A DNA stretch of 64,000 bases from Clostridia bacterium (GTDB taxonomy: Bacteria; Bacillota; Clostridia; Christensenellales; CAG-138), in NCBI GenBank assembly GCA_016293975.1, contig JAEDCW010000001.1:24069-88068 (forward strand). Direction: 5' to 3'. The notes under the pieces are model-generated. The model was not told the origin of the DNA. It ran no database searches and saw only the letters and a list, made by a program, of their open reading frames with translations. The position numbers and the translations under genes were made by a program. Every line of letters starts with the position of its first letter. Position 1 is the stretch's first letter. This document shows, one piece after another, positions 6,197-59,354 of this stretch.

Positions 6197-6421
6197 TTAA
6201 TCCAAGTATCCCGGGGTCTCCCCCTCGAATATGACCTTGAGAGTGTCCGCGGTATCCTCTCTTTGGTCATAGCAATAACTCAGATACAGCTTGGCGGCAG
6301 CAATTCTGTCTGCCGCCTTTTGCGTATCGTCCATACAAAGCTTTATGAGCGCGTTGAATATGCGCTCCGCTTTTCTGCTCTTACGCGTTTTTTTTAAACA
6401 TTCTGTGACAGTTTGTGACAT
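6197..6421 (-). CDS. Small hypothetical protein; possible C-terminal fragment of a phage small terminase
   Basis: 74 aa with SD GGAG-N6-ATG. AADRIAAAKLYL followed by an acidic ...VIFEGE... end recalls the oligomerisation and C-terminal part of Terminase_2-type TerS (such as SPP1 G1P). No N-terminal HTH is present. Confidence 0.3.
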   Translation of the reverse strand: MSQTVTECLKKTRKSRKAERIFNALIKLCMDDTQKAADRIAAAKLYLSYCYDQREDTADTLKVIFEGETPGYLD

Positions 6422-6476
6422 TTTTTACTCCTATTCGTATTTATGTTATAATTAGTGTATTGAATTGGAGGTACAT

Positions 6477-7745
6477 ATGAAGAAAGCACTATGCCTGATT
6501 GTTGTGATGCTGCTCCTAAGCTCTTGTGTTACGGGAAATGCGGGGCATCCGGATAACATGACCGTTACCCCCAAGCCCACAGAGAGCATACTCCCCGGGA
6601 CATCTCGGGAGCCTGCGTCACAGCCGAGCGATGTAGACTCCTTTTCGCAGACGCTGTACTATCCAGAGGATTCAGATGAGGACACAGCGCAATACAGACT
6701 CACCTATTCAATACCCGTTTTTGAAGACTCTACCCCCGCGGGCGCTGCGATGAACGAGGCTGTTGCGAGGTACATGGATTCATTACTCGTTTTGGTATCG
6801 CAGGAAAGAGTGCCGCGGGCCGACAGAGCCGACGGCGAACCTCTACCCTATACCGATGTAAGTTATGAGCTGAGCTATGCGCGCGGCTACACCAATGTAA
6901 TATTCAACTCAATAAGTTCATACGGCGTCGGGGAAGAACTCGGCATAAGTACGCTCGTACTCGATGGGCGCGGCAATGAGCGTCCCCTCCAATACGTAAG
7001 CGGCGTGTATTCGGGCGAAAACAACGTGGCGCAGGCGATACTCTCCGATGTTGCGAGTGCAGTCGACGGCAACTACTTCCACGATGTAACGATAGAGAGT
7101 GTTTTGCGTGCTATCGACCTCTATAACGGATATACCGTAGAGGATTTCGGTTACAGGATATATGTCCTTCCTGCGAGCCTTGCACCCGAATCGGAAGGTA
7201 TACTGTCATTTGACGTAACTACCGCTGAAGCCGCTCCGGGCTTTGTGGGCGACGTAATATCGGTCGATGCGTTCTATGCGCTTTTGCCGAGGCTCAACTC
7301 GTTGGCAACCGCACTCGCCGTTAACTACGAGAGCTATACCGATGGCATGATATCTCCCTATGCCGCAACCATATACGCCTGCATACGATTAATTGATGAA
7401 AACCCCGGAGTTTCAGGTTCTGTTGTGACGACCCGAGACGAGCTTATTGAGATCATATCTACCTCTCTGGGCATAGAATCAGAGCTCGATTTGTCCGCAT
7501 GGGGTATAAAAGAGAATGCCGATAGTCTCTCCGTCTCCACATCGCACGCGCTCTCCGTGTATGGCGTTGACATAAGCGATGTAACCGCAAGTGACGGCGG
7601 TGTTCTTCTGCTTAAAGGTACACTACACTTCGGCGCTGCCGGTTCCGCCGCTTCGCAAGGCTATGTCTCGACAGTCGAAATCGAGATAATACCGTCTGCG
7701 GCCTCCGAATGCGGCTACATCATATCCGCATTCAAAATTATCTGA
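6477..7745 (+). CDS. Lipoprotein of unknown function (possibly DUF4163/DUF3298-like N-terminal half)
   Basis: GGAGG-N6-ATG. The signal MKKALCLIVVMLLLSSC carries an LSSC lipobox. The remainder is acidic and extracytoplasmic. Confidence 0.6.
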   Translation: MKKALCLIVVMLLLSSCVTGNAGHPDNMTVTPKPTESILPGTSREPASQPSDVDSFSQTLYYPEDSDEDTAQYRLTYSIPVFEDSTPAGAAMNEAVARYMDSLLVLVSQERVPRADRADGEPLPYTDVSYELSYARGYTNVIFNSISSYGVGEELGISTLVLDGRGNERPLQYVSGVYSGENNVAQAILSDVASAVDGNYFHDVTIESVLRAIDLYNGYTVEDFGYRIYVLPASLAPESEGILSFDVTTAEAAPGFVGDVISVDAFYALLPRLNSLATALAVNYESYTDGMISPYAATIYACIRLIDENPGVSGSVVTTRDELIEIISTSLGIESELDLSAWGIKENADSLSVSTSHALSVYGVDISDVTASDGGVLLLKGTLHFGAAGSAASQGYVSTVEIEIIPSAASECGYIISAFKII

Positions 7746-7763: not shown

Positions 7764-7790
7764 AAAACGGCAGTTGCAAACTGCCGTTTT
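7764..7790. terminator. Bidirectional intrinsic terminator
   Basis: AAAACGGCAGTT-GCA-AACTGCCGTTTT is a perfect 12-bp stem with an A-run and a T-run. It sits between the convergent lipoprotein gene and the 50-codon ORF. Confidence 0.85.
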
Positions 7791-7806
7791 AATTTGCGCT
7801 TCGTGC

Positions 7807-7959
7807 TTATAGGTCGTCTGCGTCCTGCACGGGGGCGTCCCAATCTGCCGTAAGCCCCGTATAACTGCCCAGAACATCCGACGGTATCTTTTGCTTGTTT
7901 GTAAATGCGCTTCCGTCAGCTTCATTCCTTACGTCTTTTGTGTTCTTCTTAAAGTCCAT
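7807..7959 (-). CDS. 50-aa hypothetical protein downstream of the portal gene
   Basis: Below the ORF-track size cut-off. GGGAGGTG-N5-ATG. Translation: MDFKKNTKDVRNEADGSAFTNKQKIPSDVLGSYTGLTADWDAPVQDADDL. It ends 16 nt before the terminator. Confidence 0.4.
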   Translation of the reverse strand: MDFKKNTKDVRNEADGSAFTNKQKIPSDVLGSYTGLTADWDAPVQDADDL

Positions 7960-8002
7960 GCAGCACCTCCCTTGGGGCTATTATTGGCCGGATTTCCACG
8001 TT

Positions 8003-9508
8003 TTATCCATGCAGATTTACCTGTGGATACCCTAACCTTGCCTGCTTTTTCATAAGCTCCAATGCCTGCTCCTTTGAATCAAACAGCATGAGCTCAAGCC
8101 CGACATTCGGCGTCAGCATTCCGAGCTTTACGAGCTGTATAATGAGTTCGTTGTGCGCAAGCACGCTGAATCTATTCTGCTTCTGTGCCTTTACCGATAC
8201 ACTCATGCCAAGCGGACGCATTGCGCAGTCGCAACCTTTATGTGCTTCCGTCAAGCCATAAAACTCTATGTGGGCGTCAAGCTCCTGTTCAACCGCCTCG
8301 CAGAAAGCATCATGAACGAGCCTGAGTGCCATTCTCGAACGCTTGCTTGACATCTCCTGAAGCGCGCTTATCGCGCTTGCCGCCGTGACGCCTGCGGTCG
8401 AATTTCCCCGTGAAAACTCGTTTGCGCCTGATTCCTCCTTGACAGACTGTCTCATATTGTCTATGTATCCTATGAGATACGAGGGCAGAGGAGCAGTCGA
8501 GAACCAGCTGATACCCGAAAGGCTGTCGCCCCTGTGTACCTCCTTTGACCAGTCGCATAAGTCATCCGTGTCAAAGCCCGATGCGCCCGTTACAAGCAAT
8601 TTATTGTGCGATGAGAGCAGTGCGTTTTTGAGTACTATCTGGTCGAGTTTATCCGCAAGCTGCTGTCTGTCCGCAAACATATCCGAAACGGACAGTCCCA
8701 AACAACTTCCCTTTTTCGCATAAAGCGGCGTAACCACAAACGGGTATTTACCGTGTCTGTAGTAGCCCTGCGGCTTGATATATCTGCTGTCCTCGAGCAA
8801 CTGACCCCCTGCCAGTTTACACATATGAATTCTGTATATGTCCTGGCTCTCGTCGTATTCGCGCTCCCAGCATTCGATTAGCAGTATGCGCTCAGCTCCC
8901 GTATCCGCATTACCCATGCACAGGTCGTCTGCGGCGTCGGCGTGCATAAGCGCCTCATGCTTCGGGTAATGCGCCTTGTACCACTCACGAAGCTTGGGCG
9001 TGAACTTAAATACCGCACGTGAATCCTGTATGTCGGTGCAAGTTGGGTCAAACATAATGCTTCTGCAGTCTACATGACGTATGAAGCCTCCGCCCGCTCC
9101 ATAGCCGTCCCCCAGGTCACAGCCCGTCTCCTGTATCATGGTACCGCATACGAGCAAATCGTGTATAAGCTCCGCGTATTCTCTTGTATAGCGCGCTCTG
9201 TCGTGGTTTTCCCTAACAGCTTTCGTCAACCTCTCAGCAAGCGCTGTATGTTTGGCGTCGTCTGCCGTTATGACGGCCTCCGGCATTCCATCCATAAGGT
9301 CCGCCTTTATGTTCTCTACTGTCGAGAATATTATCGGCATAACAGGTCTGGGCTCCTTTGCATCGGTCTGCGGGATATCCCTCCACGAATCTCCGAAATA
9401 CATTCTCTCACAGCGCTCCATCCTCTGCCATTCCGACCTGTATGCGTCCGTATACTCGTAAAACAGCTCATAAAGCGCGTCCGCACGCGCTCTTTCATTC
9501 TTTGTCAT
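8003..9508 (-). CDS. Phage portal protein (putative)
   Basis: 501 aa, starting 18 nt after the terL stop with SD AAGGAGGA. The size, position and acidic, helix-rich sequence fit a portal. The call rests on context and general resemblance. Confidence 0.6.
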   Translation of the reverse strand: MTKNERARADALYELFYEYTDAYRSEWQRMERCERMYFGDSWRDIPQTDAKEPRPVMPIIFSTVENIKADLMDGMPEAVITADDAKHTALAERLTKAVRENHDRARYTREYAELIHDLLVCGTMIQETGCDLGDGYGAGGGFIRHVDCRSIMFDPTCTDIQDSRAVFKFTPKLREWYKAHYPKHEALMHADAADDLCMGNADTGAERILLIECWEREYDESQDIYRIHMCKLAGGQLLEDSRYIKPQGYYRHGKYPFVVTPLYAKKGSCLGLSVSDMFADRQQLADKLDQIVLKNALLSSHNKLLVTGASGFDTDDLCDWSKEVHRGDSLSGISWFSTAPLPSYLIGYIDNMRQSVKEESGANEFSRGNSTAGVTAASAISALQEMSSKRSRMALRLVHDAFCEAVEQELDAHIEFYGLTEAHKGCDCAMRPLGMSVSVKAQKQNRFSVLAHNELIIQLVKLGMLTPNVGLELMLFDSKEQALELMKKQARLGYPQVNLHG

Positions 9509-9526
9509 GTCAAAAAGTCCTCCTTA

Positions 9527-10867
9527 CTATATCGACAGATAACCTGCCTTGCTTTGCACAGTATCAAACGGCCCCGGTATGCGAGTCCTCTCCTTAGGTA
9601 TCACCCAAGCCCTCGACGGCCTCGACATTAGCGCATACCTCAGCGCTTCTGCGGCGTGATCCTCTCCGTCTGCGACATCCTCGTTGTTATACTTGTCGAA
9701 CACGAGTGTCGGAAGCGTCCTAATGAGATTCTCACAGCGCTCGAACGTCTGCCACATAGGTATGCCGTCCTCTCCGTGTGCGAGATATCCCCTCATGGTC
9801 TGCCAGCCTGCGACCCTCGAATTGTCCGACGGCGTAAGCGGAACTCCTGCCTTTGCAAACAGCTCTGCTATGGATTCTCCCACAAAGCCGCCCTCGCCCG
9901 TAAGTACAGCGCCTCGCTTTTGCCACATATCGGGAGATGCAACCGTGTACGCTATCGCCTCATCTGCGGTAAGCTCCACGATACGGCTTGCTACCTCGTC
10001 GGCACGGAGCTTGTTTACATACAACTCCCTGTAGGTGATTATTCTTCCCTCGGGACCTATGGCATGCCACAGCACACAGCACGGGTCATGATACCCCCAG
10101 TCCATTGAGCGAAACCGCCTCCATCGTGCCGGAATTGCATGTTCCCTTATGACGTGTTCCGTGCGTGAAAACTCTCCGAAGAACTGTCCGGCAAAGACAT
10201 CCCAGTCGCCGTTCAGATGAGCCCTTCTCAGCTCATACGGAAGCGCTTCAAGCTGTTTGATATACCCCGGATCCGCCTGCATCAATACCCTGTTGTCGTA
10301 AATTCTCGCCGGTATGAAGGCGTAATCCTCGGGTGTCTCTCCCTGCTCGAAGCGCCTGTCGATGAAAAGTCTTTTAACCCAGGCATGACCCACATTTCCG
10401 GGGTTGCAGGTGTAGTACATCCTAGGCTTGAAGTCTCCTCTGCTCGTTCTGTTGCAGGTACACATAAACTGCATCTGCTCAAACGTGAAGTGGGTCGCCT
10501 CCTCAAGCCCTATGACCTCGTACTCCCTGCCCTGATACCTGTATATGTCGTTTGGTGCATCGCAATAGCCAAGCATCAGCCGCGAGTTGTTCGGAAAAAG
10601 GAAAACTCTCTCTGTCGAGTTATACTCCACGATACCGCCAAGCTCATGCAGCAGGGGAATTACATGATTCTCGCGCAGCTCGGGGAGCGTGCGCCTCATA
10701 AGCAGGCAGTTGAGTCCGTCGTGAGCCAAGCAGAGCATAACGAGCTTCCGCCGCATCGCCCAGCTCTTGCCGCCGCCCCTTGCTCCTCCGTACGCGGTGT
10801 GCCTTGTGCGGCTCAGCAGAAACTCCCTCTGCCTCGGATTGGGTTCGCCCCTAAGATACAATTCCAT
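9527..10867 (-). CDS. terL: Phage terminase large subunit
   Basis: Walker A GGARGGGKS, Walker B-like YEVIGLEEAT, and nuclease-domain acidic motifs MDWGYHDP and DGEDHAAEALRY. SD GGGAGGA. Confidence 0.85.
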   Translation of the reverse strand: MELYLRGEPNPRQREFLLSRTRHTAYGGARGGGKSWAMRRKLVMLCLAHDGLNCLLMRRTLPELRENHVIPLLHELGGIVEYNSTERVFLFPNNSRLMLGYCDAPNDIYRYQGREYEVIGLEEATHFTFEQMQFMCTCNRTSRGDFKPRMYYTCNPGNVGHAWVKRLFIDRRFEQGETPEDYAFIPARIYDNRVLMQADPGYIKQLEALPYELRRAHLNGDWDVFAGQFFGEFSRTEHVIREHAIPARWRRFRSMDWGYHDPCCVLWHAIGPEGRIITYRELYVNKLRADEVASRIVELTADEAIAYTVASPDMWQKRGAVLTGEGGFVGESIAELFAKAGVPLTPSDNSRVAGWQTMRGYLAHGEDGIPMWQTFERCENLIRTLPTLVFDKYNNEDVADGEDHAAEALRYALMSRPSRAWVIPKERTRIPGPFDTVQSKAGYLSI

Positions 10868-10980
10868 AGCTTTCCTCCCTGACTTTCATCGCAATCAGCA
10901 TAAAGCACTGTTATATGCACCGTGGTTGCACCTTCCGTGCGTATACGTTGCAAACACGCCTGGACGCCGCAAGGCGATAG

Positions 10981-11011
10981 AAAAAAGACCGCAGTCCTTA
11001 AGACTACGGCC
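10981..11011 (-). terminator. Intrinsic terminator of the chrA pair
   Basis: Minus strand: GGCCGTAGTC-TTAAG-GACTGCGGTC (10 bp, two G-U pairs), then T6. Confidence 0.7.
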
Positions 11012-14186: not shown

Positions 14187-15233
14187 ATGGAAAACGTCAA
14201 AGTTGCATTATGGGGATTCGGAGCAATGGGAAGCGGCATTGCAAAGGTTCTTCTTAATAAGAAAGGCGTAGACATCGTCGGCGTTTGCGACATTCATCCC
14301 GACCGTGTCAACAAGAGCATATATGAGCTTCTCGACGAGGACAGAAACGGTCGTTCCGATGTGTTTGTAAATCCCGATATTAAGGCAGTCGTATACGACA
14401 AGTGCTGTGACATCTGCGTCATAGCTACGGATTCGTTCACCAGGAAAGCTTTCGATAAGATAAAGTACGTCGTCGAGCAGGGCATCAACGTAGTCTCGAC
14501 CGCAGAAGAGATGAGCTATCCCAAGGCACAGGAACCCGAACTTGCGGCTGAACTCGACAGGCTCGCAAAGGAAAACGGTGTTTCGATACTTGGTACGGGC
14601 ATCAACCCCGGTCTCATGATGGACCTGCTCGCAATATGCCTCTCAGGCTGTATGACCGACGTCAAAAAGGTCACCTGCCGCAGAGTTAACAGTCTCTCAC
14701 CCTTTGGCCCCGCCGTTATGGAAGAGCAGGGCGTAGGCGTTACAGTCGATGAGTTCGCAAAGGGCGTTGAGAACGGCACGCTCGCAGGTCACGTAGGCTT
14801 TGCGGAGTCCGTGGGCATGATAGCCGAGGCATTGGGCTGGAAGGTGGATAAGTTTGAACAGCAGATGAAGCCCATCGTTACGAGCGTTGACCGTAAGTCT
14901 CCCTACGGCTTTGCTAAGGCAGGCGACGTAGCAGGCGTCAACATGACGGGTCAGGGCTACTGCGACGGCCAGCTCAAGATAGACATGTACCATCCCCAGC
15001 AGATCGAGCCCGAGATGGAAGGTACCCACACCGGCGACTACATCGTTCTCGAGGGCACACCTGCTGTCAATATGGCGATCAACCCCGAGGTCGACGGCGG
15101 CATAGGCACAATCGCAATGGTCGTAAACATGATTCCCCATGTCATCAACGCGAGACCGGGTCTCAAGACCATGCTGGATCTGCCCGTACCGAGAGCTATA
15201 ATGGGCGACTTCAGAGATTATATCGAAAAGTGA
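14187..15233 (+). CDS. ord: 2,4-diaminopentanoate dehydrogenase
   Basis: 348 aa with the N-terminal Rossmann motif VALWGFGAMGSGIA. It is the first gene of the canonical ord-ortAB-oraSE-orr cluster. Confidence 0.8.
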   Translation: MENVKVALWGFGAMGSGIAKVLLNKKGVDIVGVCDIHPDRVNKSIYELLDEDRNGRSDVFVNPDIKAVVYDKCCDICVIATDSFTRKAFDKIKYVVEQGINVVSTAEEMSYPKAQEPELAAELDRLAKENGVSILGTGINPGLMMDLLAICLSGCMTDVKKVTCRRVNSLSPFGPAVMEEQGVGVTVDEFAKGVENGTLAGHVGFAESVGMIAEALGWKVDKFEQQMKPIVTSVDRKSPYGFAKAGDVAGVNMTGQGYCDGQLKIDMYHPQQIEPEMEGTHTGDYIVLEGTPAVNMAINPEVDGGIGTIAMVVNMIPHVINARPGLKTMLDLPVPRAIMGDFRDYIEK

Positions 15234-15254
15234 TTATATAAAACGGAGGATACT

Positions 15255-15557
15255 ATGGCAAAAAAAGGCGATTGGGTCATGATACACAATATCGTGCTTA
15301 AACCCGAGGAGCGCTCTGCCAACCTGCCCGAGGACACAAAGAAAGTGCCTCTTGAGATGTGGGTAAAGGGCTACCTGCAAAGTGATGCAAAGCTCGGCGA
15401 TACTGTAACTGTTATCACACGCACCGGGCGCACAGCCGTAGGTGAGCTTGTCGACGAAGCGCCCCACTACGAACACAGCTTCGGCAGCCTCGTCCCCGAG
15501 GTGCTCAAGATAGGAGATACTGTAAGAAAGATTCTGTTCGGGGGTGAGGCCAAATGA
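15255..15557 (+). CDS. ortA: 2-amino-4-ketopentanoate thiolase, alpha subunit
   Basis: 100 aa. KKGDWVMIHNIVLKPEERSANLPEDTKKVPLEMWVKG is characteristic of OrtA. Confidence 0.85.
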   Translation: MAKKGDWVMIHNIVLKPEERSANLPEDTKKVPLEMWVKGYLQSDAKLGDTVTVITRTGRTAVGELVDEAPHYEHSFGSLVPEVLKIGDTVRKILFGGEAK

Positions 15558-16969
15558 AGGACATGAGCTACAACGGCGTTATGTCTCGTAAAAACGAAAT
15601 AATGCGCACAGCGGTAGGAATGGACTACTCACTCTTTGAGCGCGGAAAAATAGCGTTCGATTACGAAGCCATGATGGCCGCAACAGGCTATGACATAGAC
15701 GAGCTCGTTAGGATTCAGGGTCTTTTCTCTGTCGGCCACACGCCCATAATCGAGCTTAAGAACCTCACCGCATTGGCGAGAAGGTGTGCTCCCGCAGGCA
15801 AGGGCGCAAGGATATTCGTCAAGGACGAGGCGACAAACCCCTCCGGAAGTTTCAAGGCGCGCCGCTCCGCAACGAGCGTGTATCAGGCAAAGACACACGG
15901 CTATAAGGGCATAATTGCCGCAACAAGCGGCAACTACGGTGCGGCGGTAGCATCACACGCGGCAATGGCAGGCCTTAAGTGCATAGTCGTTCAGGAGTGC
16001 TACGACTCCAAGGGTATAGGTCAGCCCGAGATAATCGAAAAGGCAAGAAAGTGCGAGGCGCTCGGCGCAGAAGTAGTACAACTCACCGTAGGTCCGGAAC
16101 TCTTCTATACATTCCTGAAGCTACTCGAGGAGACCGGCTATTTCAACGCATCACTGTACACTCCGTTCGGCATCGCAGGCATAGAAACGCTTGGCTACGA
16201 GATCGTACATCAGTTCAGGGCTAAGCTCGGCAAGGATCCCGACGTAGTTGTCTGCACAAACGCAGGCGGAGGCAATCTTACGGGTACCGCTCGCGGTCTA
16301 AGAAAAGCGGGCTGCTCAGCTAAGGTCGTCGGCGCAAGCGTAAGTCTCGCAGGACTGCACATGGCGTCCGACACGCAGTTCAATAAAAAGTCTTTCACGA
16401 CGGGTCACACGGGCTTCGGCGTCCCGTTTACCACAAACCCCGACCGTTCCGACGTCCCCAGAAGCGCCGGCCGTCCCCTGCGCTACATGGACAGGTATGT
16501 CACGGTCACACAGGGCAGCGTATTCTACATAACCGAATGCCTTGCCTCGCTCGAAGGACTTGAGAAGGGTCCTGCAGGCAACACAGCGCTCGCCGCGGCA
16601 TTCAAGCTCGCTCAGGAAATGGACGAGGATCAGATTATCGTCGTTCAGGAGACAGAATATACCGGTGCCGGCAAGCATATCAATCCCCAGCTCTGGTTTG
16701 CACGCCAGAATGGTATAGACATCCACTTCGGCGACCCAAAGGACGAGGTTCCCGGAAAGAGCATCATACTTCCCGAGCACCCCTCGCTCATCGACGTTAC
16801 GGATGTCGATATGGACCATCTGAGGCATTCGAGAATAAAGAATGCTGTAGGAGATAAGATTTTTGAACTTACAGATACGGATATAGAGTACCTCGTTGCG
16901 GAGACAAACACGGACGAAGCGTATGTCAATGCCGTTCTTGAAGAACTGAAAAAAGGAGCAAAAGCATGA
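15554..16969 (+). CDS. ortB: 2-amino-4-ketopentanoate thiolase, beta subunit (PLP-dependent)
   Basis: 471 aa with a Trp-synthase-beta-like fold (NPSGSFKARR PLP-lysine motif). It overlaps ortA by 4 nt. Confidence 0.85.
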   Translation: MKDMSYNGVMSRKNEIMRTAVGMDYSLFERGKIAFDYEAMMAATGYDIDELVRIQGLFSVGHTPIIELKNLTALARRCAPAGKGARIFVKDEATNPSGSFKARRSATSVYQAKTHGYKGIIAATSGNYGAAVASHAAMAGLKCIVVQECYDSKGIGQPEIIEKARKCEALGAEVVQLTVGPELFYTFLKLLEETGYFNASLYTPFGIAGIETLGYEIVHQFRAKLGKDPDVVVCTNAGGGNLTGTARGLRKAGCSAKVVGASVSLAGLHMASDTQFNKKSFTTGHTGFGVPFTTNPDRSDVPRSAGRPLRYMDRYVTVTQGSVFYITECLASLEGLEKGPAGNTALAAAFKLAQEMDEDQIIVVQETEYTGAGKHINPQLWFARQNGIDIHFGDPKDEVPGKSIILPEHPSLIDVTDVDMDHLRHSRIKNAVGDKIFELTDTDIEYLVAETNTDEAYVNAVLEELKKGAKA

Positions 16970-17334
16970 AAAGAACCGACGATTACGAATCCAGAAGCGC
17001 ACATCTCAAGTCGCTGACGGACGAACAGCTCGAGGCTCGTTTCTGGGAGCTTGCAAACAAGCTCGTGGACCCTATGCTCAAAATGGGCTATGAGTACACG
17101 TCACCCTCGATTGAGCGCTCCGTTCTGCTTAGAATGGGCTTCTCCTCCATCGAGGCAAAGTCCATAGTTGACGGCTGTATTGAGCACAATCTTATAGGTC
17201 ACGGCGCAGGCAATGTAGTTTACAGGCTCTCCGTCGCCACAAAGACCGACATACGCACCGCAGGACTCGCGCTGTGCGAGGGCAAGCTTTGGCAGGAGGC
17301 CGAGGCACAGTTTGAGGGAGGTAACAAACAATGA
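16966..17334 (+). CDS. oraS: D-ornithine 4,5-aminomutase, S subunit
   Basis: 122 aa; the size, position and sequence fit OraS. It overlaps both neighbours by 4 nt. Confidence 0.85.
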   Translation: MKRTDDYESRSAHLKSLTDEQLEARFWELANKLVDPMLKMGYEYTSPSIERSVLLRMGFSSIEAKSIVDGCIEHNLIGHGAGNVVYRLSVATKTDIRTAGLALCEGKLWQEAEAQFEGGNKQ

Positions 17335-19550
17335 GTGATTACAAGCTTACACCCGACAAGCCCATCGATATAGACGAAATACTCAAGGACCTCAAGGATT
17401 ACCGTCCCCGTCGCAGAGGTTGGACATGGCGCAAGCCCGTCGAGAATCTGCACATGGGTCCGTTTGAGTACCACGATTGTACAGAACCCCTCAAGAGCTC
17501 CGTGCCGCTTCCCCCCGCCCATTACTTCGACAATATCGACCCACAGCCCGGCCCCGTCATCACGACCGAGATAGCCTCGGGCAGATTTGAGGACGATATC
17601 AGAAGAATGCGCATGGCGGCACATCACGGCGCAGACCACATAATGGTAATAAGGACCGCAGGTCAGTCGCACTTTGACGGTCTTATCGAGGGTACTCCCC
17701 AAGGTATGGGCGGTGTTCCGATTACACGTAAGCAGGTTCGTGCTCAGCGTAAGGCACTCGACATGATAGAGGACGAAGTAGGTCGTCCCATAAACTACCA
17801 CAGCTACGTTTCAGGCGTTGCAGGCCCCGATATAGCCGTAATGTTTGCCGAAGAGGGCGTAAACGGCGTCCATCAGGACCCTCAGTACAACGTAATTTAC
17901 CGCAACATCAACATGGTGCGCTCATTCGTAGACGCCTGTGAGTCAAAGAAGCTCATAGCTTGGGCAAACATGGCTCAGATAGACGGTGCGCATAACGCTA
18001 ACGCGACGGCGCGCGAAGCGTGGAAGGTAATGCCCGAACTTATGGTTCAGCACGCCATAAACGCGATATTCTCCGCGAGAGTAGGCGTACCCAAGAAGAA
18101 CATCTGCCTCTCGACCGTACCCCCCACAGCTACACCCGCTCCCTGTGTATACATGGACCTTCCCTATGCAGTAGCACTCCGCGAGCTGTTCCACGAGTAC
18201 AGGATGCGCGCTCAGATGAACACCAAGTACATCGAGGCTTCAACGAGAGAAGCAACTGTCACTCATGTTCTCAACATGGTAATATCCAAGCTCACGAGCG
18301 CAGATATACAGTCGACAATCACCCCCGACGAGGGCAGAAATGTACCGTGGCACATTTACAATATAGAAGCTTGCGACACCGCAAAGCAGACACTCGTAGG
18401 TCTCGACGGACTTATGGAGATGGTCGAACTTAAGAAGGACGGTTATCTCAGAGACAAGTCGAGAGAACTCAAGGAGCGTGCAGTGCTCTTCATGGAAGAG
18501 ATGCTCGAGATGGGCGGCTACTTCAAGGCAGTTGAAGAAGGCTTCTTCGTCGATTCGGGTTGCTATCCCGAGAGAAACGGCGACGGCATAGTGAGAAAGA
18601 TCGACGGCGGCATAGGCGCAGGTACAATATTCAAGCGCGAGCCCGACTACATGGCTCCCGTAACCGCTCACTACGGCTACAACAATGTCGCTCAGTACGG
18701 CGAGCAGTACATCGACAACCCCGCGGCGCTTATAGGCGGTTGTACGCTCGAATGCCCCGACAAGATAGTCTACATAGACGAGCTTGACGAGGAGGACAAC
18801 GTAAACGTAAGAATGAGCGCTGCCTCAGACCACAAGCCCGGAAGCGACCTCATCCGTCCCGAGATGGAATGGCTCGCAGACGGTACGGTTATGCTCACGA
18901 TGTTCTTCCCGGCGAGCAAGCGCATTGCCGAGGCAGCGGCACTTGAAGTGGCTCACCGTATGAACCTTACAGAGTGTGAGGTCATAAACCGCGAGATAAT
19001 GCATAACCAAGAGGGCACGAGGATCGAAGTCAAGGGTAAAGTACCGTTCTCCGTGAGAGTAAGCGACCTCGTAATACCCGAGGAGCCCGAAGTCATGAGC
19101 GACGACGAGATTCGCAGTGAGATGGAGCGCAAGCCCATGCGTGTTGTCTGCGGCACAGTCGGTCAGGACGAACACTCCGTAGGTCTGCGCGAGATAATCG
19201 ACATAAAGCACGGCGGCATAGAGAAGTACGGCATCGAAGTACATTACCTCGGCACATCCGTCCCCCCGGAGAAGCTTGTCAACGCCGCAATAGAGCTCAA
19301 TGCCGACGCGATACTCGCTTCGACAATAATCAGCCACGACGACATACACTACAAGAACATCGAGAAGATCGATAGGCTTGCACGTGAGATGGGCGTCCGC
19401 GATAAGCTGATGTTCTGCGCAGGCGGCACTCAGGTAACCCCGGAGCTTGCAAGGACACACGGCGCAGACGAGGGCTTCGGCAGGGGCACAAAGGGCGTAC
19501 ACGTTGCGACATTCCTCGTAAGACGCAGACGTGAGCTCGAAGAGAAATAA
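17331..19550 (+). CDS. oraE: D-ornithine 4,5-aminomutase, E subunit (B12- and PLP-dependent)
   Basis: 739 aa. The C-terminal B12-binding Rossmann domain includes GQDEHSVGL. Confidence 0.9.
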   Translation: MSDYKLTPDKPIDIDEILKDLKDYRPRRRGWTWRKPVENLHMGPFEYHDCTEPLKSSVPLPPAHYFDNIDPQPGPVITTEIASGRFEDDIRRMRMAAHHGADHIMVIRTAGQSHFDGLIEGTPQGMGGVPITRKQVRAQRKALDMIEDEVGRPINYHSYVSGVAGPDIAVMFAEEGVNGVHQDPQYNVIYRNINMVRSFVDACESKKLIAWANMAQIDGAHNANATAREAWKVMPELMVQHAINAIFSARVGVPKKNICLSTVPPTATPAPCVYMDLPYAVALRELFHEYRMRAQMNTKYIEASTREATVTHVLNMVISKLTSADIQSTITPDEGRNVPWHIYNIEACDTAKQTLVGLDGLMEMVELKKDGYLRDKSRELKERAVLFMEEMLEMGGYFKAVEEGFFVDSGCYPERNGDGIVRKIDGGIGAGTIFKREPDYMAPVTAHYGYNNVAQYGEQYIDNPAALIGGCTLECPDKIVYIDELDEEDNVNVRMSAASDHKPGSDLIRPEMEWLADGTVMLTMFFPASKRIAEAAALEVAHRMNLTECEVINREIMHNQEGTRIEVKGKVPFSVRVSDLVIPEEPEVMSDDEIRSEMERKPMRVVCGTVGQDEHSVGLREIIDIKHGGIEKYGIEVHYLGTSVPPEKLVNAAIELNADAILASTIISHDDIHYKNIEKIDRLAREMGVRDKLMFCAGGTQVTPELARTHGADEGFGRGTKGVHVATFLVRRRRELEEK

Positions 19551-19560
19551 TCAACCGACT

Positions 19561-19588
19561 CAGGGGGCAAACAACCCCCTGTTCTTTT
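19561..19588 (+). terminator. Terminator-like hairpin inside the ornithine cluster
   Basis: CAGGGGG-CAAACAA-CCCCCTG followed by TTCTTTT. It ends 3 nt before the next start codon. Confidence 0.55.
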
Positions 19589-19591
19589 GAT

Positions 19592-20950
19592 ATGACAGTA
19601 GATATTCTTGTAGCGGAAATAGGTTCGACGACTACTCTCGTCAATGCTTTCTCGGGCATAGGCTCTTCCTCCCCCCGCTTTTGGGGTCAGGGGCAGGCGC
19701 CTACGTCCGTGCTTGTCGGCGATGTGACGATAGGTCTTTCGGGCGCAATCCGCGACCTTTCACAAAAACTCGGAGAAGAAATCAGTTATTCGGAGATGTT
19801 TGCGACGTCGAGTGCGGCAGGCGGACTTCGCATGAGCGTTCACGGACTCGTGTACGACATGACTGTCCGCGCAGCTCAGGCGGCGGCGCTCGGCGCAGGT
19901 GCGATAGTCCGAAACACGACGGCGGGAAAGCTGTCCGGCTATGACATCGAGGACCTTGTGCATGAAAACCCGAATCTCATAATGCTTGCAGGGGGCACGG
20001 ATTACGGCGAGAAGGCGACTGCCGTATTCAATGCGCGTGCAATCGCCGAATCGGGTCTCAAGACGCCCGTTATCTACGCTGGCAACATCCAATGCAGGCG
20101 CGAGATTGCAGACATATTTAAACAAGCCGGCATACCCTTCTACATGACAGAAAACGTCTACCCGAAGCTCGATATGATTAACATCGAGCCTGCGAGGAAG
20201 ATAATACACGCGGCGTTTGAAGAGCATATTGTCAAGGCTCCCAATATGGAGCATATCCGCGACATGGTGCAGGGCAATATAATCCCCACTCCGGGCGCCG
20301 TAATGGAGGCTTCTCAGCTTCTTTATGCCGAAATAGGCGATCTCGTTGTCGTGGATATAGGCGGCGCTACGACCGACGTGCATTCGGTGACTCCCGGCTC
20401 CGATGAAATCGCGTCTATACAGACATCCCCCGAGCCTATGGCAAAGCGCACCGTCGAGGGCGACCTCGGTTTGTATGTAAACGCCCATAACCTCGTTGAG
20501 ATGATAGGGCGGGACAAGCTCACAAACGAACTCGGTATAGACGTGGATGTCTGCATGGCTAACTATAAGCCCATACCTAAGACGTCCGAGCAAGTTAGAC
20601 TCACATCGAGGCTTTGCGTTGAAGCCGGCATAACCGCGATATCGAGACATGCGGGTGCGCTGAGGCACATCTATTCCCCTCAGGGCAGGCAGACTATCGC
20701 AGAGGGCAAGGACCTTACCAAAATCAGCTATATCGTCGGTACGGGCGGAGCGCTCACAAGGCTTCCCGAAAGAGAGCGCTTGCTCAGGCAAATAGCCGAC
20801 TGCAACAAGCACGGCATGATGCTATTCCCCAAACCGGGCGAGCTTAAGCTCCTGTTTGACGACGATTACACAATGGCTTCCCTTGGGGTGTTGGGCAAAC
20901 GCTTCCCCGAGGACGCCGTAAACCTCATGAGGCAGAGCCTCAAAATATGA
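19592..20950 (+). CDS. GlmL/MutL-like ASKHA-fold protein (putative aminomutase reactivase)
   Basis: 452 aa. The N-terminal LVAEIGSTTT and internal VVDIGGATTD phosphate-binding motifs match glutamate-mutase component L. No SD precedes the ATG. Confidence 0.7.
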   Translation: MTVDILVAEIGSTTTLVNAFSGIGSSSPRFWGQGQAPTSVLVGDVTIGLSGAIRDLSQKLGEEISYSEMFATSSAAGGLRMSVHGLVYDMTVRAAQAAALGAGAIVRNTTAGKLSGYDIEDLVHENPNLIMLAGGTDYGEKATAVFNARAIAESGLKTPVIYAGNIQCRREIADIFKQAGIPFYMTENVYPKLDMINIEPARKIIHAAFEEHIVKAPNMEHIRDMVQGNIIPTPGAVMEASQLLYAEIGDLVVVDIGGATTDVHSVTPGSDEIASIQTSPEPMAKRTVEGDLGLYVNAHNLVEMIGRDKLTNELGIDVDVCMANYKPIPKTSEQVRLTSRLCVEAGITAISRHAGALRHIYSPQGRQTIAEGKDLTKISYIVGTGGALTRLPERERLLRQIADCNKHGMMLFPKPGELKLLFDDDYTMASLGVLGKRFPEDAVNLMRQSLKI

Positions 20951-56531: not shown

Positions 56532-56882
56532 TTGAAGCGTTGCTACTCCCTGAAGCGGAACAAGGAATTTCGTCGTGTATACCGCATAGGAAAAACCCAG
56601 AAATGCAGGACTCTCGTGCTTATATACACAAAAAGCTGCGGCCCTGCAAATAGGTTTGGTTTCAGCGTGAGCAAGAAGCTCGGCAACAGTGTAATACGAA
56701 ACAGGATAAAGCGCCGCCTGAGAGAGGCTGTACGTCTGCAATTCGACGATATAAAGACCTCGTACAATTTCATATTTATCGCCCGTGGCGCCGTCCTCAC
56801 GGAAAGCTTCCCCGCCCTTATGTCGCAGGTACGACTGGTGCTCGACAGGGCAGGATTGATTAAGGATGTTGCGGAAAAATGA
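56532..56882 (+). CDS. rnpA: Ribonuclease P protein component
   Basis: [16 protein letters not shown]...[27 protein letters not shown] start. Confidence 0.9.
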
Positions 56883-57208
56883 AGCGAGTGCTGCTTTGGC
56901 TCATTGCCTTCTACAAGCGTCGGATATCACCGGCGTTGCCGTCCGCATGCCGCTTTTACCCGACTTGCTCGGAATACGCCTATAGCGCAATCTCAAAATT
57001 CGGTGCTTTTCTTGGCACTATATTGGCAATTTTCCGCCTGCTTCGATGCAACCCGTTTTCACGGGGCGGATACGACCCTGTGCCCGATACATTCATCGGC
57101 GCATTTTCAAAAAAGACCCGCGAGATGAACGACAAGCTTGAATGGGATTTTTCCGACGACGAATCAGGCTCCTCCGAGGACAAAATCACGCATTGCCGCG
57201 AGCAATGA
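56879..57208 (+). CDS. yidD: Membrane protein insertion efficiency factor YidD (with a C-terminal extension of about 35 aa)
   Basis: [45 protein letters not shown]. Confidence 0.9.
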
Positions 57209-57244
57209 TACTCACGGGTAGTACATCGAAAGAGAGGGAGCACC

Positions 57245-58282
57245 TTGCAAGGAGATTTTTTTCTTACCAACTGGTTTTTAGAGGGCATGAAGTGGGTTTA
57301 TTACAACCTAACTTCCATGAATGTCACCCTTACGATCGTCATCTGCACGCTCATACTCAGAGCATTTTCGATTTTCGGTGATATAAGCTCTCGTAAGTCA
57401 TCAAGAAAGATGGCTTTGATACAGCCGCAGATTCAAAAGCTGCAGAAGAAATATGCGAACGACCCTCAGAAGCTCAGAGCGGAGCAGAGCAAGCTGATGA
57501 AGCAGGAAGGCGTGAGCATGTGGGGCGGTTGCCTGCCTATGCTCATAACCATGCCCCTGTTCTTCTGCTTCTTCGCCGCATTCCGCTATTGGGCATCTGA
57601 GCATATGATTGAGCTCTTGCTCACGGCAAACACGGATATGGAAGCCGCAAAGGAGATGTTCACAAACTTCAAATTCCTTTGGGTATGTAACATATGGGAA
57701 GCTGACAGCGCGCTGATCCCTGTACTCTCAAAGGCGGAAACATTCCTTGCCACGAAGAATATGGCTAACCTCTTGTACTTTGTTGAGCATCCCGAGGCGA
57801 TAAAGGTATTCGAAGAACTCGGAATGGCTATACAGACAAGCTCCGTAGTCAACGGCGAAGTAGTCAATACATGGCAATTTATTGCAAGTGATAACGCAAT
57901 AGCTACATACAATAATTTGACCGCTCCGCTTATGGAGATGTATCCCGGATACACAAACGGCTGGTTTATCTGGCCCATTATTACGGGCGGACTCATGATG
58001 CTGAGCTCACTGCTCTCACAGCCCAGGCCGAAGAAGGGCGAGCAGTTGACCGAACAGGAAAAGCAGACGCAGAAGACGTCCAAGATTATGATGTACATAT
58101 TTCCCGCATTCTGCTTGATAGCCTGCTTGTCATCGTCCACGGCATTCGCCGTATACTGGAGCTTCTCGAGCTTGCTCATGGTAGTTATCAACCTCATTCT
58201 CAACAAAGCATTCCCGAGAACGGTTGCTCCCGTTGAGCCCACACCCGAGGAAAACTTTGCCGCAAAGATCGGCAGAAAATAA
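57245..58282 (+). CDS. yidC: YidC/Oxa1-family membrane protein insertase
   Basis: LTIVICTLILRA..QPQIQKLQKKYANDPQKL..GGCLPMLITMPLFF. The TTG start at 57245 follows GAGGGAG; an alternative ATG is at 57287. Confidence 0.85.
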   Translation: MQGDFFLTNWFLEGMKWVYYNLTSMNVTLTIVICTLILRAFSIFGDISSRKSSRKMALIQPQIQKLQKKYANDPQKLRAEQSKLMKQEGVSMWGGCLPMLITMPLFFCFFAAFRYWASEHMIELLLTANTDMEAAKEMFTNFKFLWVCNIWEADSALIPVLSKAETFLATKNMANLLYFVEHPEAIKVFEELGMAIQTSSVVNGEVVNTWQFIASDNAIATYNNLTAPLMEMYPGYTNGWFIWPIITGGLMMLSSLLSQPRPKKGEQLTEQEKQTQKTSKIMMYIFPAFCLIACLSSSTAFAVYWSFSSLLMVVINLILNKAFPRTVAPVEPTPEENFAAKIGRK

Positions 58283-58304
58283 TCGTCCCTTAATAGGAGG
58301 AATA

Positions 58305-59354
58305 ATGAAGTTTTTGGAAGTTTCCGACAAGACCGTAGATAGTGCAATATTTAAAGGTCTTAACGAGCTTGGACTCTCAATCGACGAGGTGGAGATAGAG
58401 ATCGTACAACAGGACACGCGCGGCATACTTGGTATAGGCAAAAAAGATGCTATCGTCCGCCTTACCCAGAAGCCCGAAGATGAAGTGATAATTCCCGACT
58501 TTGCAGAGCTTGCAAGGGAAGGCCGCCGTGAAAGAAGCGACGACAGGCGCAAAAGCGGCAATACAGACAGAAACAGAAACGACCGTCCGTGCAACGACCG
58601 CAGAGGCGACAAGCGCCCCGAAGGCCGCGAAGCAAGGCCTGGAGCGCCCAAGCAAGACAGACCTCCCAAGCAGGAGCATCGTCCGCAGGTACAGAAACCC
58701 CAGCCCATACATGAGATAAGCGAAAGCATCTGCGATACGGTCGCCCCCACAGAGGTCGCAGTACCGACCCCCGCAATCGGGGAAAAGAAGTTTGAACTCA
58801 CCATAGAGAACGCCGCGAACGAAGAAGGCGCGATATTCCTCAAAGGTATGCTCACTAGAATGGGCATAGAGTGTGAAATGCTCGCAGGCGGAGACGAGAA
58901 CGAGCTTGCCATTCAGATATCAAGCCCCTCAATGGCACTTATAATCGGCCACAGGGGCGAGACGCTCGACTCACTGCAGTACCTCACATCCCTCGTGGTC
59001 AATAAGAACCGCAAGGAAGACGGCTATCGCAGGGTAACAGTAGACATCGAAGGCTATAGACAGAAGCGTGAGGAAACACTCGTAAAGCTCGCAAGGCGCG
59101 TAGCGCAGCAGGTCAAGCAGACAGGCAGACCTCGCACACTTGAGCCTATGAACCCCTACGAGCGCAGAATACTGCACTCAACGCTCCAGTCGAGCGTCTA
59201 TGTAACGACACACAGCGTAGGCGATGAACCCAACAGGCGCGTCGTTGTATCTCCAAAGCGCAGGCGTCCGAGCAGCTACAGGTCCTGCGGAAACAACCGT
59301 CCGACGCAGGCAAATGCTCCTCGCATTGAATCAAACGGAGCAGTAACAGAATAA
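58305..59354 (+). CDS. jag: Jag/KhpB RNA-binding protein (Jag_N + KH + R3H) with a long basic low-complexity insert
   Basis: AGGAGGAATA-ATG. N-terminal KTVDSAIFKGLNELGL, and C-terminal R3H LEPMNPYERRILH. An R/D/K/P-rich linker of about 70 aa is present. Confidence 0.85.
   Translation: MKFLEVSDKTVDSAIFKGLNELGLSIDEVEIEIVQQDTRGILGIGKKDAIVRLTQKPEDEVIIPDFAELAREGRRERSDDRRKSGNTDRNRNDRPCNDRRGDKRPEGREARPGAPKQDRPPKQEHRPQVQKPQPIHEISESICDTVAPTEVAVPTPAIGEKKFELTIENAANEEGAIFLKGMLTRMGIECEMLAGGDENELAIQISSPSMALIIGHRGETLDSLQYLTSLVVNKNRKEDGYRRVTVDIEGYRQKREETLVKLARRVAQQVKQTGRPRTLEPMNPYERRILHSTLQSSVYVTTHSVGDEPNRRVVVSPKRRRPSSYRSCGNNRPTQANAPRIESNGAVTE

Follow-up and report, generated by a model that had tools for sequence, protein, structure and literature searches.

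The closest described system to the one considered here is FpGTA, the gene transfer agent (GTA) of Faecalibacterium prausnitzii. Its operon I comprises ten open reading frames (ORFs) in 10.5 kb, encoding a small terminase subunit (TerS) without a DNA-binding domain, the large terminase subunit (TerL), portal, scaffold, capsid and hypothetical proteins, and at a distance of 125 kb there is a 5.5-kb fibre/holin/lysin (endolysin) operon (Borodovich et al. 2026, Nat Commun, PMC12946183). FpGTA particles are 40 nm in size, podovirus-like and filled with ~8.5-kb fragments of host DNA, and the same study describes GTA-like packaging in the Christensenellaceae genera QANA01 (~6.3 kb) and HGM11616 (~4.1 kb), where the genes were left unassigned (PMC12946183). 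We found no other paper that mentions FpGTA or ties N4-gp56 capsids to GTAs, and a first literature search for orphan or domesticated terminase-portal pairs returned nothing relevant. Here we analyze a 64-kb stretch of contig JAEDCW010000001.1 from a Clostridia bacterium of the order Christensenellales (the window), in which genes for TerL and a portal protein stand between chrA and an amidase gene. We consider it likely that this locus is the DNA-packaging module of a multi-locus, domesticated, podovirus-derived GTA-like particle system of Christensenellales, of the FpGTA kind. Both FpGTA and the Christensenellales element are podovirus-like, chromosomally fixed, carried by gut Clostridia and distributed over several loci, the latter element being known here from its genes alone; the host order is Oscillospirales for FpGTA and Christensenellales here.

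The module comprises five genes, namely TerL, portal, a 50-codon gene (s50), a lipoprotein-like gene on the opposite strand and a TerS-like gene (s74). With the signals around them they are laid out in the window as follows.

9527-10867, minus strand: TerL, terminase large subunit, 446 aa, with an ATPase domain and an RNase H-like nuclease domain (Pfam, PHROG, motifs)
8003-9508, minus strand: portal protein, P22/SU10-like, 501 aa (Pfam, PHROG)
7807-7959, minus strand: s50, a 50-codon ORF for a conserved small protein (homologues, strong Shine-Dalgarno site)
7764-7790, minus strand: intrinsic terminator closing the TerL-portal-s50 transcription unit (12-bp stem, 3-nt loop, T-run)
6465-7745, plus strand: lipoprotein-like gene, 426 aa, with signal peptide and lipobox (homologues at the same position)
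6197-6421, minus strand: s74, a 74-aa protein, candidate small terminase (homologues, weak TerS matches)
10868-10986, minus strand: presumed promoter and leader of the TerL operon, in the gap separating chrA terminator and TerL start (function inferred only)

Profile comparisons identify the 446-aa protein as a terminase large subunit and the 501-aa protein as a P22/SU10-like portal, both intact. TerL exceeds the Pfam cut-offs for Terminase_6N (44.3 bits, cut-off 22), Terminase_3 (32.1, cut-off 23.2) and Terminase_6C (22.8, cut-off 22.6) and matches PHROG 979 (E 8.5e-46) and PHROG 2 (E 1e-38). Its Walker A motif (GGARGGGKS, G27-S35), the glutamates E122/E123 in VIGLEEAT and the acidic nuclease residues D256, D313 and D403, whose roles are assigned by analogy, are unchanged in 20 homologues. 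The nuclease domain aligns with the nuclease structure of P22 TerL (gp2; 4DKW) in a profile match at E 1.4e-3; PDB sequence searches with single proteins gave no match. Assignment to the PBSX type (NCBIfam TIGR01547) was rejected because the score of 60.7 falls below the cut-off of 105, which places the protein in another subfamily, and the closest phage TerL in INPHARED is only 48% identical. The portal scores 77.5 bits against P22_portal (cut-off 26.1) and 48.0 against SU10_portal (cut-off 30), matches PHROG 156 at E 1.2e-35, and is full through its conserved C-terminal helix, with just the variable tail being short. The portal gene starts 18 nt downstream of TerL; GGGAGG precedes TerL, AAGGAGG the portal and GGGAGG s50; and the unit begins ~120 nt beyond the chrA terminator at 10987-11011. 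The initial annotation had called this pair, its spacing, the strong Shine-Dalgarno sites, the 50-codon ORF, the 12-bp-stem terminator and the chrA terminator upstream, all of which are confirmed; what it missed were two conserved genes that also belong to the module, one for the 426-aa lipoprotein-like protein and one the 74-aa ORF.

When the capsid, scaffold, adaptor, tail, fibre, TerS and activator families of the relatives described below were searched for with tblastn, none was detected in the 64 kb, as the initial annotation had also stated for virion genes, and the sole matches were weak lysin-domain ones to host cell-wall hydrolases. The flanks consist of chrA, the amidase gene, a two-component system and thyA/folA, and the 10 kb past the left window edge contain housekeeping genes only, so that the 74 kb around the locus are free of virion genes besides the module. 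No integrase, replication or excision genes were found in the module or its flanks. A decaying prophage remnant, produced by a recent deletion and kept by chance, could have this appearance, with only packaging genes left in the window among ordinary host flanks and terminators on both sides. We consider that origin extremely unlikely on the distribution and selection data that follow.

With each GTDB species represented by one genome, a scan returned ~466 related loci (cited here by L numbers), all from Christensenellales or from metagenome-assembled genomes (MAGs) of Clostridia. The module is found in dozens of Christensenellales species with differing flanks, TerL identity being 65-73% across many of them, and the adjacency of TerL and portal is essentially universal across 85 loci, where the available DNA allows it to be seen. 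In one species with 68% TerL identity, the public gene calls show TerL, portal, a small ORF, an opposite-strand 426-aa gene and a 72-aa ORF, again with different flanks. Clustering of the flanking ORFs together with family-wise tblastn shows that the relatives carry one ancestral gene set in several arrangements, which form a graded series from compact to split. At the compact end, class C (Christensenella and others; L078-85, L089-91) has 10 contiguous ORFs in ~8.5 kb, in the order TerS, TerL, portal, scaffold, N4-gp56-type capsid, small protein, SU10-like adaptor, ~475-aa structural (neck/nozzle) protein, small protein and a protein of the family c4, bounded directly by host genes (yaaT and a DAGK-like gene, or IspDF and MreB). 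It is these clusters that FpGTA resembles in gene order, ORF count and capsid family, the comparison having been made by these features and the NCBI capsid family name, not by protein sequence.

In class B, a block of scaffold, capsid, c4, fibre, lysin and holin is followed by an opposite-strand gene for an EamA-family transporter and then by the TerL-portal pair, and the adaptor block is absent from the neighbourhood. Class A' loci with a capsid, and likewise L086-88, comprise three blocks parted by iscR-iscS-nifU and EamA, and in class B' (L005, L041), which nests within the class A clade of the TerL tree, a tail/lysis block lies 5 kb upstream of an activator-like gene and the TerL-portal pair. 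Class A, the window type, consists of the packaging module only. Unlike in FpGTA, the split here runs through the head module, with TerL-portal unlinked from scaffold and capsid; TerS is reduced to ~60-90 aa and often lies downstream or divergent; and the module has the conserved s50 and an interleaved lipoprotein gene.

The 35-48-kb viral contigs of IMG/VR show where such a gene set probably came from. Their TerL relatives (56-62% identity) always lie beside scaffold, capsid and adaptor genes, which is the state of the viral ancestor. Podophages with a P22/SU10-like portal and an N4-gp56-type capsid (IMG/VR, and the L081 cluster described below) share the TerL, portal, major capsid protein (MCP), adaptor and c18 families at 43-78% identity and are the likely viral ancestors. 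These phages differ from the window locus in having complete genomes, contiguous structural modules and many more genes, whereas the window locus is packaging-only and sits among housekeeping genes.

Some further features of these arrangements were observed. In at least four species-level genomes (L079, L083, L084 and L085) the compact cluster occupies one chromosomal site, from a PSP1/yaaT-like to a DAGK-like gene. In one class A sublineage (L028-L032, L061), 350-700 bp separate TerL and portal, against the usual ~20-50 bp. The opposite-strand EamA gene recurs in or beside the GTA-like blocks of many species (L098, L086, L181, L268, L270), separating either holin from TerL or lysin/holin from the adaptor block, and the window has an EamA-family transporter homologue at 157-1116 on the plus strand, 5 kb from the module.

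The TerL ORF is intact in all 85 of the loci examined. Nei-Gojobori estimates of dN/dS, from pairs with unsaturated dS, are 0.16 (class A), 0.15 (A'), 0.16 (B) and 0.14 (C) for TerL and 0.21, 0.20, 0.17 and 0.13, in the same order, for the portal. Because these values are similar across classes, isolated TerL-portal pairs are as constrained as those adjacent to a capsid gene. The exact TerL protein of the window is indexed in 565 blocks of public assemblies, and every contig that we read for this species, including NCBI GCA_034176115.1, has the same chrA to amidase context, with a nucleotide identity across the locus of 99.4-100%, like that of the neighbouring housekeeping genes. Intact ORFs, low dN/dS and fixation together exclude neutral decay as well as a recent deletion, the latter being one of two explanations offered in the initial annotation; a remnant would also have to account for the presence of the same module in many species and for invariant catalytic motifs. 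The second explanation, retention under selection, is the one borne out by order-wide conservation and species-level fixation.

A capsid-centred metagenome scan revealed many loci, in several species, that contain scaffold, capsid, c4, lysin/holin, adaptor and c18 genes but are free of TerL and portal within 10 kb. Capsid-only and particular TerL-only loci pair by tetranucleotide composition (r 0.95-0.98), as L154 does with the class A species of the L001 type, and the capsid-only loci divide into two clades that parallel those of TerL classes A and A'. In 27 genomes in which TerL and MCP are physically linked, the divergences of the two proteins co-vary (r 0.87, slope 0.95). Searching with the L154 capsid, which is of the class A type, led to cluster P0395 at 74% identity; this MCP cluster has 69 members, compared with 67 for the window TerL and 61 for the portal. 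The corresponding loci, L270-272, run from ACPS through scaffold, MCP, a c4-like gene and holin, then EamA on the minus strand, then c55, adaptor, c18 and c60, to housekeeping genes.

The tetranucleotide correlation of L270 with the window is 0.942, in comparison with 0.90-0.94 for 13-kb pieces of the window against the rest and at most 0.82 for other foreign loci, and the loci that L270 matches best are the eight from the window species and no others. Furthermore, when distance profiles to the linked genomes are compared, the window TerL fits the L270 capsid best and vice versa, with a root mean square of 0.029. Composition, distance congruence and cluster size therefore provide strong circumstantial evidence that the window species carries a head/neck/holin block of the L270 type elsewhere in its genome. 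The initial description of the pair as an orphan is accurate for the 64-kb window and probably wrong for the genome, the matching capsid/neck/holin block being found on other contigs. Other candidate partners were rejected: the prevalent L105/L181-type capsid block belongs to another species (accessions out of range, tetranucleotide r with the window 0.66), as do the populous capsid clusters P0188 and P0182. Nor did the L105/L181-type block overlap at the nucleotide level with those A' TerL loci that were tested.

The small ORFs of the module encode real proteins. There are 45 distinct homologues of s74, always found with TerL-portal, either downstream or divergently upstream, and marked by the motifs DRIAAAKLLLDY and LxVVFEGxPxEY. 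The window s74 has no match in Pfam, PHROG, NCBIfam or PADLOC; one homologue matches the TerS family PHROG 641 weakly (E 1.5e-3), and the only part of class C TerS to which s74 could be aligned is its C-terminal ~35 residues (hhalign E 1.1e-3, probability 20%; control families 0.35-0.4). We tentatively suggest from these alignments that s74 is a TerS that has lost its DNA-binding part. For s50 we found 23 distinct homologues in class A loci, mostly just 3' of the portal gene, with an invariant C-terminal GSYTG...PVQDADDL motif; it has no match in Pfam, PHROG, NCBIfam or PADLOC and no detectable relationship to the scaffold protein. The same P(V/T)QDADDL-stop ending was also seen on unrelated small ORFs (of 88 aa, for example) a few kb from class B capsid blocks, at L098:3808-4074 (minus strand), in L099 and L148, and in L144 (~2466, minus strand), and may be a short docking or degradation tag common to several small proteins near these elements. 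Homologues of the lipoprotein-like protein (422-426 aa, 25-48% identity) occupy the same position in ~28 class A loci; the protein has no Pfam, PHROG, NCBIfam, PADLOC or PDB match and its gene has its own sigma-70-like promoter at 6424-6452. It is probably an interleaved host gene, conserved as a neighbour inside the module.

When these results are considered together, a plausible mechanism can be outlined. The element would be inherited with the chromosome across the order Christensenellales, and its ancestral compact ten-gene cluster would have been split into blocks by host genes in many lineages. In the window species the packaging block stands between chrA and the amidase gene, and a block of scaffold-MCP-c4-holin, EamA and c55-adaptor-c18-c60 would lie elsewhere. 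We infer that the blocks are co-expressed on induction, that particles form and that host DNA is packaged: the portal would nucleate a small procapsid made of the distant capsid and scaffold products, and TerL would dock on the portal and pump DNA in by headful packaging. In this process s74 may assist TerL, having kept the TerL-binding C-terminal part of TerS; with the DNA-recognition domain gone, packaging would not be sequence-specific. The holin would then release the particles. The suggestion in the initial annotation of a domesticated packaging motor survives in spirit, except that the motor has most likely not taken on a new stand-alone role and still serves a domesticated capsid.

The architecture speaks equally for a domesticated multi-locus system whose particles are not those of a GTA, one that is killer/tailocin-like (PBSX-type) or promotes lysis or vesicle formation, in which DNA would be packaged and never delivered. 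The holin in the capsid block would suit such a system, and the authors of FpGTA themselves leave open whether it delivers DNA or has a PBSX-like action (PMC12946183). Very short-tailed, podovirus-like particles are nevertheless poor candidates for contractile killing, and we regard this outcome as unlikely.

Evidence on how the TerL unit might be expressed comes from the leader at 10868-10986. On the minus strand this region contains a TATAAC box and the direct repeat TGCAAC-N20-TGCAAC, with no good sigma-70 consensus and no recognisable -35 element, and the TerL promoter may be activator-dependent. In many relatives an activator gene (Act2-like; ~180 aa, sigma/late-activator-like, PHROG 36) adjoins TerL; Act2 is unrelated to TerS. 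A search of 5-13 kb of the window against Rfam returned no RNA family, and a search for a promoter motif common to the blocks of L086 turned up nothing beyond 9-mers at chance level. The ribosome-binding site of TerL or scaffold is, in many relatives, immediately preceded by a GC hairpin and T-run, which belong to a short leader behind a promoter-like site. These hairpins lie 50-130 nt upstream of TerL in L018, L022, L028, L030, L033, L048 and L055, with a further example at L086:9155-9561, and suggest attenuation or antitermination control in the relatives; the window TerL leader has no such GC hairpin.

Several observations weigh against the proposal that the window locus is one part of a dispersed GTA-like system. 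No regulator was found in the window, and the Act2-like activator of the relatives is absent here. Among the contigs that we saw, none joins a window-type TerL locus and an L270-type capsid block, and L270 showed neither a lysin nor a fibre gene. The assignment of s74 to TerS is weak (E ~1e-3 over a short alignment). Finally, the MAG RGIG7280 holds both a class A pair (L028, JAFYOP010000007.1) and a separate, larger phage-like cluster (L081, JAFYOP010000004.1), and the two may stand in a helper or interference relationship. L081 has its own TerS and portal, a shorter 314-aa capsid and a TerL that is 58% identical to that of the window, and is possibly a resident phage, possibly a second element.

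The last of these observations bears on a different explanation, that the packaging pair stands alone in a new role and needs no resident capsid, acting in piracy on, or in anti-phage defence against, the capsids of related podophages. The cognate portal would enter foreign procapsids, after which the cell's own TerL and s74 would either package host DNA or stop the phage from packaging. Besides RGIG7280, in which a class A pair coexists with a cluster of the same family that encodes a TerL and a portal of its own, IMG/VR contains true phages whose TerL is 56-62% identical, s50 and s74 go specifically with the TerL-portal block, and there is no capsid gene in the 64 kb and the adjoining 10 kb. 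Set against this are the equal selection on TerL and portal at capsid-adjacent loci, the capsid-only blocks in matching clades, one of which matches the window species, the lack of integrase and replication genes, and the fixed locus; nor did the PADLOC defence-system models recognize the five module proteins, with one spurious HerA match (E 0.078) and none for the other four. We consider a stand-alone role quite unlikely. Seen in this way, TerL-portal-s50-s74 would be an autonomous unit uncoupled from capsid genes, loading host DNA into podophage procapsids or poisoning them, and the PVQDADDL tail of s50 might serve as a docking or control peptide; we hold such a unit to be improbable.

The preferred interpretation of a dispersed, domesticated GTA-like system is also informed by comparison with RcGTA and the other alphaproteobacterial GTAs and with phage satellites. 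As in a GTA of the FpGTA kind, the virion genes here are chromosomal and lie among host genes without replication, integration or lysogeny modules, and they have been retained for a long time under purifying selection together with the host lineage (dN/dS 0.13-0.21, co-divergence, fixation). The alphaproteobacterial GTAs similarly have domesticated head-tail genes under purifying selection, inherited vertically and spread over several loci, and have a TerS without DNA-binding specificity and small capsids with random host DNA. Unlike the Christensenellales element they are siphovirus-like, of the HK97-type lineage and of separate origin, and they have TerL, portal and capsid in one main cluster; the CtrA/GafA regulation of RcGTA is not applicable here. 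Satellites, such as capsid-forming phage-inducible chromosomal islands (cf-PICIs) and the Staphylococcus aureus pathogenicity islands (SaPIs) with TerS, are also chromosomal and encode a subset of packaging or capsid functions, but they are characterized by integrase, replication and excision genes, strain variability and helper dependence, none of which was seen at the window locus. The helper-dependent satellite raised in the initial annotation (PICI-, SaPI- or P4-like) is not supported on these grounds, the locus being the same in every contig read and the TerL tree following the gene-context classes.

Members of the Christensenellales are prevalent and heritable in the human and animal gut microbiota. 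The loci described here provide a candidate gene set, in hundreds of species, for the GTA-like packaging of Christensenellales that has so far had no assigned genes. Because this set is broken into blocks, and the packaging motor can sit tens of kb or more from the capsid genes, prophage and GTA finders that rely on clustering will miss or mislabel the split loci. The system becomes testable by knock-outs, particle proteomics and induction, and the graded arrangements form a natural series for how a host dismantles and keeps a virus. If the pair should prove to be an autonomous unit after all, it would represent a new kind of piracy or defence based on a packaging motor, unlike a classical GTA.

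Elsewhere in the window, an ornithine/lysine aminomutase-type fermentation cluster occupies 14187-20950 on the plus strand, its members carrying the Pfam labels DAP_DH_C, OrtA, PALP, OAM alpha, Lys-AminoMut_A/B12-binding and MutL-like on identical public contigs. The rnpA-, yidD-, yidC- and jag-like ORFs at 56532-59354 on the plus strand suggest that the replication origin is nearby, and several public contigs of the window species end ~3 kb past the right edge, which hints at an rRNA operon-like repeat there.

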